Translations under genes and position numbers: made by a program
Source: Escherichia coli
GTDB lineage: Bacteria; Pseudomonadota; Gammaproteobacteria; Enterobacterales; Enterobacteriaceae
NCBI RefSeq assembly: GCF_044647545.1
Contig: NZ_CP172818.1
DNA length: 64,000 bases
Strand: one strand, 5' to 3'
In this document: positions 19,625-19,765 of the stretch, piece after piece
Position numbering within the stretch: position 1 is the stretch's first letter
How the letters are laid out: every line of letters begins with the position of its first letter
The notes under the pieces: generated by a model
What the model was told of the DNA's origin: nothing
Database searches by the model: none
Seen by the model: only the letters and a program-made list of their open reading frames with translations

Positions 19625-19765
19625 ACGATATCAACTCAAAACTACCACACAAATACTCACCACATACAACCCCTACAGCTAAAAACCCCCCCAAACTAAA
19701 AAACAACACAAAGAACAAGAAAACAAAACCGAACCCCAATGAAAAAAAAAATAACGCGCTGGAAC
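19625..19765. other. strongly A/C-skewed low-complexity tract in the folA-apaH intergenic region
   Basis: Roughly 120-140 bp with very few G or T on the + strand (e.g. ...ccacacaaatactcaccacatacaacccctacagctaaaaacccccccaaactaaaaaacaacacaaag...); see findings. Confidence 0.5.

Follow-up and report, generated by a model that had tools for sequence, protein, structure and literature searches.

What occupies the space between folA and apaH in this Escherichia coli genome? In the window analysed here, a stretch of 64,000 nucleotides from contig NZ_CP172818.1, the two genes face each other as they do in K-12, and the ORF-to-ORF gap between them measures 272 bp, against 77 bp in K-12 MG1655, where folA ends at 50302 and apaH starts at 50380. 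A preliminary description of the locus had given these two lengths, and the coordinates bear both of them out. It had also drawn attention to a tract of peculiar composition within the gap, for which it considered either a low-quality insertion or a genuine element of the lineage. Our comparison with closely related genomes leads to a different identity for this DNA: the tract is a ccd toxin-antitoxin islet from which, going in the + direction, more and more G and T have dropped out while A and C are kept; a skip of ~264 nt follows. As judged from the sequence comparisons, it is very probably not real DNA, and would represent an artefact of sequence production, introduced at the read, consensus or polishing stage, over a chromosomal ccdA-ccdB islet of the ccdO157 type.

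The composition of the tract is indeed as skewed as had been claimed. Counting the bases of the + strand from 19625 to 19765 gave 52.5% A, 31.2% C, 7.1% G and 9.2% T, and the tract contains a C7 run as well as an A10 run at 19742-19751. Its A+C content of 83.7% lies about six standard deviations above the value for all 141-nt windows of the 64 kb (49.2 ± 5.5%), and the maximum for this length, 85.1%, is reached from 19613. No tandem repeats were detected in 19500-19900 (Tandem Repeats Finder, minimum score 30). The convergent terminators that had been thought to flank the tract could not be confirmed, as neither terminator-like nor promoter-like sites were found in 19450-19950. When judged by comparison with relatives, the abnormal zone extends from 19571 to 19812 and is thus wider than 19625-19765. 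The genes on either side are normal: folA shows 0 differences from the folA genes of NZ_AP022098.1 and FDAARGOS_497, and apaH shows 0 differences from the relative's sequence beyond 19812.

The relatives reveal what should be expected at this site. A 20-kb query around it retrieved genomes of 99.9% identity, among them strains named ST648, MS6198 and ECONIH1, and in these genomes the folA-apaH span is 359-360 bp longer than in the window. Three long alignments, which together account for the window apart from two junk stretches, put the identity to ST648-type genomes at 99.84-99.96%. The ST648-type spacer is 632 bp long and holds ccdA and ccdB, so that the spacer of the window falls short of this islet by 360 bp. 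In NZ_AP022098.1 the two genes encode 77 and 104 amino acids, respectively, and the end of ccdB overlaps the end of apaH by 4 nt. The two proteins of the relative match the NCBIfam models for CcdA (E 8e-10) and CcdB (E 9e-17), both below the equivalog cut-offs, and the order folA-islet-apaH is the same in the window as in two relatives' loci (L001 and L002). The relatives' spacer is a chromosomal ccdO157-type toxin-antitoxin islet. CcdB is a poison of DNA gyrase, and CcdA is the labile antitoxin that neutralizes it. Mine and colleagues reportedly described a chromosomal ccdO157 (ccdA-ccdB) islet at this position in E. coli in 2009. According to two reviews, the spacer between folA and apaH is plastic and carries either a REP sequence or a ccd system, with the ccd genes defective or absent in some strains (PMC3184786, PMC7167474, citing Mine et al. 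2009).

Comparison with other E. coli genomes had been proposed as a check, and it proved informative. In a megablast search with 19540-19860 as the query, 2,197 of 5,426 complete E. coli genomes matched, and they did so at the two edges of the query only. In those 2,197 genomes the two edge pieces span ~681 bp, over annotated CcdA and CcdB genes; a more sensitive blastn search returned the same edge-only result. The edges match the ccd islet, and the identical tract occurs in none of the 5,426 genomes: by megablast and by the more sensitive blastn alike, 0 of them cover at least 80% of it. Nor was there any match in plasmid or phage records, or any exact match for a 25-mer from the tract in species-representative genomes or metagenome contigs, and the other genomes searched contain neither identical nor intermediate forms. 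Since it lacks repeat periodicity and terminators and was absent from every other genome searched, the tract finds no support as the genuine simple-sequence element of the lineage that had been envisaged. To K-12 the spacer aligns over no more than a few bases beside each gene. We also considered whether the junction GTATAGAATTTCC might be a natural K-12-like allele and rejected this, as 0 complete genomes cover at least 80% of the 48-nt query around it (19545-19592); it was counted as damage. The features of the locus, together with the other damaged sites discussed below, are listed in the table.

Table. Features of the folA-apaH locus, other damage clusters in the window and stretches of the reference that K-12 does not share
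Feature	Position	Strand	Description
folA (dihydrofolate reductase)	19082-19561	+	159-aa ORF, intact; left core-gene boundary of the islet
folA-ccdA spacer of the islet	19562-19632	+	85 nt in relatives; BLAST alignment to L001 and L002
Decimated ccdA	19633-19745	+	Body left as an A/C skeleton; event list versus relative
Junction, end of the A10 run	19746-19751	+	~264 nt of the islet missing here
ccdB 3' remnant	19752-19837	+	About codons 76-104 plus stop codon; stop overlaps the apaH stop
apaH	19834-20682	-	282-aa ORF, intact; right core-gene boundary of the islet
Damage cluster, araD-araA REP array	36031-36065		~34-nt replacement (CTCGAAAATTTATCGGTCAAAATGCATACCGCGC) within the array; relatives and K-12 have GACGCG(T/C)C(G/A)GCG
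Damage cluster, homopolymer block	44962-45716		Scattered single-base deletions (44962-45121), then 588 nt of A/G homopolymer junk (45129-45716)
Damage cluster, leuD-sgrS/sgrT spacer (short)	47648-47683		Six small deletions (C, TT, GT, G, T, T) versus NZ_AP022098.1
ccdAB islet, no K-12 counterpart	reference 24372-24993		
espY2 islet, no K-12 counterpart	reference 50100-51109		
40-nt junction of the setA deletion, no K-12 counterpart	reference 53055-53094		

Apart from the deletions, the edges of the islet in the window are 97-98% identical to those of the relatives. The alignment at the left edge reaches codon 9 of ccdA. The first damage event lies at 19571, single-base deletions of G and T become dense from 19593, and the start codon of ccdA is destroyed by deletion of the TG of its ATG at 19634. 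No ccdA ORF and no tblastn match to CcdA were found within the gap, so an intact 77-aa reading frame is lacking there. At the other end correct sequence returns abruptly, at a distance of 82 nt from apaH. The BLAST alignment picks up again at 19752, covers these last 82 nt and continues into apaH as a single HSP with 98.4% identity to L001. Here the 3' part of ccdB, some 28 codons, is nearly intact, but a G is lost at 19761 and GA at 19766, and an extra C stands at 19812. The extra C splits the ccdB tail across two frames, and a tblastn search with the reference CcdB accordingly matched residues 77-99 in one frame and 93-104 in another. An intact 104-aa ccdB frame is absent from the gap, in which residues 77-104 alone are recognizable.

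The errors that separate the tract from the islet are of a single kind. In the pairwise BLAST alignments of 19571-19812 with relatives there are 20 deletion events, two insertions and no substitutions, and the deleted bases are nearly all G or T. In the left flank (19565-19653) the deletions removed 12 of 19 reference G (63%) and 6 of 27 T (22%), compared with 1 of 39 A (3%) and 0 of 22 C (0%), again without any substitution. The central 98 nt (19654-19751) gave no BLAST alignment to the 438 nt that are missing from the window. Two simple comparisons of this core with the missing 438 nt, a longest-common-subsequence test and an edit distance with free G/T deletion, gave shuffled sequences the same scores, which we attribute to the reference being 4.4 times longer than the core. 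The likelihood of a uniform deletion channel over the whole 438 nt was likewise not significant (z 0.5-1.1); this result implies that different parts of the islet are unequally represented in the core, and an anchored extension was then tried. A three-way MAFFT alignment misplaced the tract and was not used for homology.

In the anchored test the tract was extended from its left or its right edge into the 438 missing reference nucleotides, with shuffled tracts and random genomic references as controls. From the left, 92 of the 98 nt (19654-19745) align to the first 174 of the 438 reference nt, that is, to the body of ccdA. Under costs that allow for base dropout, this extension scored 45.25; shuffled tracts scored 17.4 ± 4.9 and random genomic references 11.6 ± 5.5 (0 of 200 controls reached 45.25 in each case; z 5.6-6.1). 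Deletion costs that ignore the identity of the base led to the same outcome: z was 6.5-8.0 in the comparison with shuffles and 3.7-6.8 in that with random genomic references. On the other hand, extension from the right into ccdB did no better than shuffles, which indicates that the body of ccdB is absent rather than decimated. The ~264 nt comprising the 3' end of ccdA and codons 1 to ~75 of ccdB are simply missing. The part that is left shows how selective the loss has been: relative to the first 174 reference nt, the core 19654-19745 retains 49 of 50 A and 31 of 41 C, but 7 of 39 T and 5 of 44 G, and about 85% of the G and T of ccdA are gone. The loss is also graded. In successive 30-nt bins of the reference, taken in the + direction, retention of G/T runs 100, 100, 88, 50, 53, 33, 13, 19, 7, 9 and 15%, while retention of A/C stays at 71-100% across the same bins. 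The richness of the + strand in A and C is therefore the residue of normal coding sequence stripped of its G and T.

These observations modify the suggestion that the tract is a low-quality insertion like the homopolymer block elsewhere in the window. The low quality stands: the tract is unique, its errors are base-specific and confined to insertions and deletions, and its polarity is the same as that of the block. The insertion does not, as no junk has been added to a 77-bp K-12-like spacer; what is seen are the remains of a 632-bp islet. Such remains differ from both of the spacer types with which they can be compared. With the ccdO157 islet the tract shares the folA-apaH locus, homology of the DNA at the edges and an interior collinear with ccdA, and it differs in having neither gene intact, which we attribute to corruption of the data and not to biology. 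With the K-12-type spacer it shares the convergent flanking genes, but the latter is 77 bp long (and contains REP sequence, according to PMC3184786 and PMC7167474), whereas the 272 bp of the window align to the ccd islet and do not represent a K-12-type spacer. Short C and A runs and a skewed composition also recall simple-sequence or contingency tracts such as phase-variable homopolymers and microsatellites; unlike these, the tract has no periodic unit, is not conserved in relatives and can be derived from coding DNA by deletion of bases.

The ccd tract is not the only damaged part of the window. Outside the clusters of damage, ~60 kb compared with NZ_AP022098.1 contain 0 deletions, one insertion and three SNPs. 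Besides 19571-19812 there are three clusters (see table), of which the largest ends in homopolymer junk with runs of up to A30 and G17. Relatives have 835 nt in place of this junk, comprising espY2, a T3SS effector gene, with its surroundings. The correct sequence is back at 45717, which equals reference position 51110 and is precisely the point at which homology to K-12 sets in again. When the block (45129-45716) was compared with the espY2 region, its collinearity stood out from shuffles (z 5.9) but not from random references (z 1.1). The ccd tract and this cluster have a common polarity, with decay in the + direction followed by abrupt recovery. The sequence found at 36031-36065 is covered by no complete E. 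coli genome and is probably another artefact of a different style. The cluster at 47648-47683 sits on the junction of a deletion, as the lineage is without setA, which K-12 has. The clusters may not share one physical cause, as their error modes differ: G and T drop out in the ccd tract, 45129-45716 consists of A/G homopolymer junk, and 34 nt are replaced at 36031-36065.

All four clusters (19571-19812, 36031-36065, 44962-45716 and 47648-47683) lie at sites where the ST648-type genomes differ structurally from K-12 MG1655. Three of the sites are stretches with no K-12 counterpart, and the fourth, in the araD-araA REP array, shows a difference in length rather than an absent stretch. The chance that three cluster midpoints would fall inside the three stretches without a counterpart, which make up 1,672 nt of the 64 kb, is p ~2e-5. 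This coincidence suggests that correction was limited to reference DNA or that some other template-dependent process was at work. An extreme base composition of the islets was considered as the cause of failed polishing and rejected, their GC contents being 0.46, 0.42 and 0.50.

Several lines of evidence speak for an artefact: there is no copy of the tract in the independent genomes searched, the closest relatives included, its error spectrum is base-specific, graded and restricted to insertions and deletions, and the same assembly carries other, unrelated damage. It may have come about when one noisy stretch, from a single-molecule or flow-type read or from a failed local consensus, was left uncorrected, while correction elsewhere would have reached only DNA with a counterpart in some reference or template without the islets of this lineage. 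The persistence of a noisy read in a near-perfect consensus needs this extra assumption, namely that correction was limited to reference-shared DNA. Some instruments may detect G/T and A/C in separate optical channels, which could explain the paired dropout of G and T; the argument does not rest on this. The window can be likened to imperfectly polished long-read or reference-assisted assemblies, with which it would share localized errors consisting of insertions and deletions only, homopolymer junk nearby, an otherwise perfect sequence and the limitation of damage to DNA absent from a common reference. It differs from such assemblies in that the near-complete loss of G and T, with its smooth gradient, is unusually clean. 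Under this reading the 632-bp spacer of the relatives is almost certainly present, intact, in the true genome, whose locus would most likely encode intact CcdA and CcdB.

The tract would be equally unreal if the sequence had been altered or generated computationally, through simulated corruption, infill by a model or a consensus drawn from an alignment at sites without a template. We regard such an origin as unlikely, though several of the observations fit it: the damage is confined to stretches that are structurally different from K-12, the homopolymer cluster ends exactly at the point (45717, reference 51110) where K-12 homology resumes, three styles of corruption occur within 28 kb, and the rest of the window is essentially error-free. 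However, a graded, base-specific dropout in which collinearity is kept resembles the loss of signal along a read and not typical infill or masking, and nothing in the data points to a software source.

Much less room is left for explanations in which the tract is real. It might be a genuine strain-specific remnant of ccdAB that decayed in vivo through many small deletions and one 264-bp deletion, and a decayed islet would not be out of place at this site: the islet edges were matched in only 2,197 of the 5,426 complete genomes, and a plastic spacer with defective or absent ccd genes is documented in the two reviews (PMC3184786, PMC7167474, citing Mine et al. 2009). Even so, this origin is very improbable. 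The flanking 60 kb are virtually identical to relatives, the intermediate or identical form is found in no other genome searched, and the same window has other unique damage, including the A30 and G17 homopolymer junk. The spectrum itself is the main difficulty, as we know of no mutational process that deletes 63-90% of G and T singly, on one strand, over ~250 bp and without substitutions. One could postulate such a process in this one strain, for example aberrant repair or a template-skipping polymerase acting on horizontally acquired DNA, which would have removed G and T singly from one strand of ccdAB and of other accessory islets; we consider this slightly more far-fetched still. Least credible of all is that the tract is a foreign element, simple-sequence or mobile, that is particular to the lineage and unrelated to ccd and has inserted itself between the two genes. 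Such an origin would suit the extreme composition and the known insertion hot spot, but not the collinearity of edges and interior with ccdA and ccdB, the lack of tandem repeats or the failure to find anything similar in plasmids, phages, E. coli genomes, species representatives or metagenomes.

The tract therefore represents no new biology, and the chromosomal ccdAB islet that underlies it, at the plastic folA-apaH site, has already been described. Its importance lies rather in what it tells about the assembly, which is near-perfect in core DNA and corrupted at every structurally variable site examined in the window. Annotation or pangenome analysis would mistake this sequence for one that has lost a toxin-antitoxin system as well as espY2, or that carries a novel element. 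This amounts to a quality warning for the assembly, and other odd features in accessory regions of the same genome should be treated with suspicion.

Two minor observations were made in the course of the comparison with NZ_AP022098.1. At 28636 the window has a single inserted G (TTGCTACT[G]AAACAAAG), near the 3' end of the relative's espY1 effector gene, where it would shift the frame. In NZ_AP022098.1 itself (L003, 18602-18732) sgrT is annotated as a frameshifted pseudogene, and there is no setA between sgrS/sgrT and leuD, unlike in K-12; this is a feature of the lineage that is unrelated to the tract.
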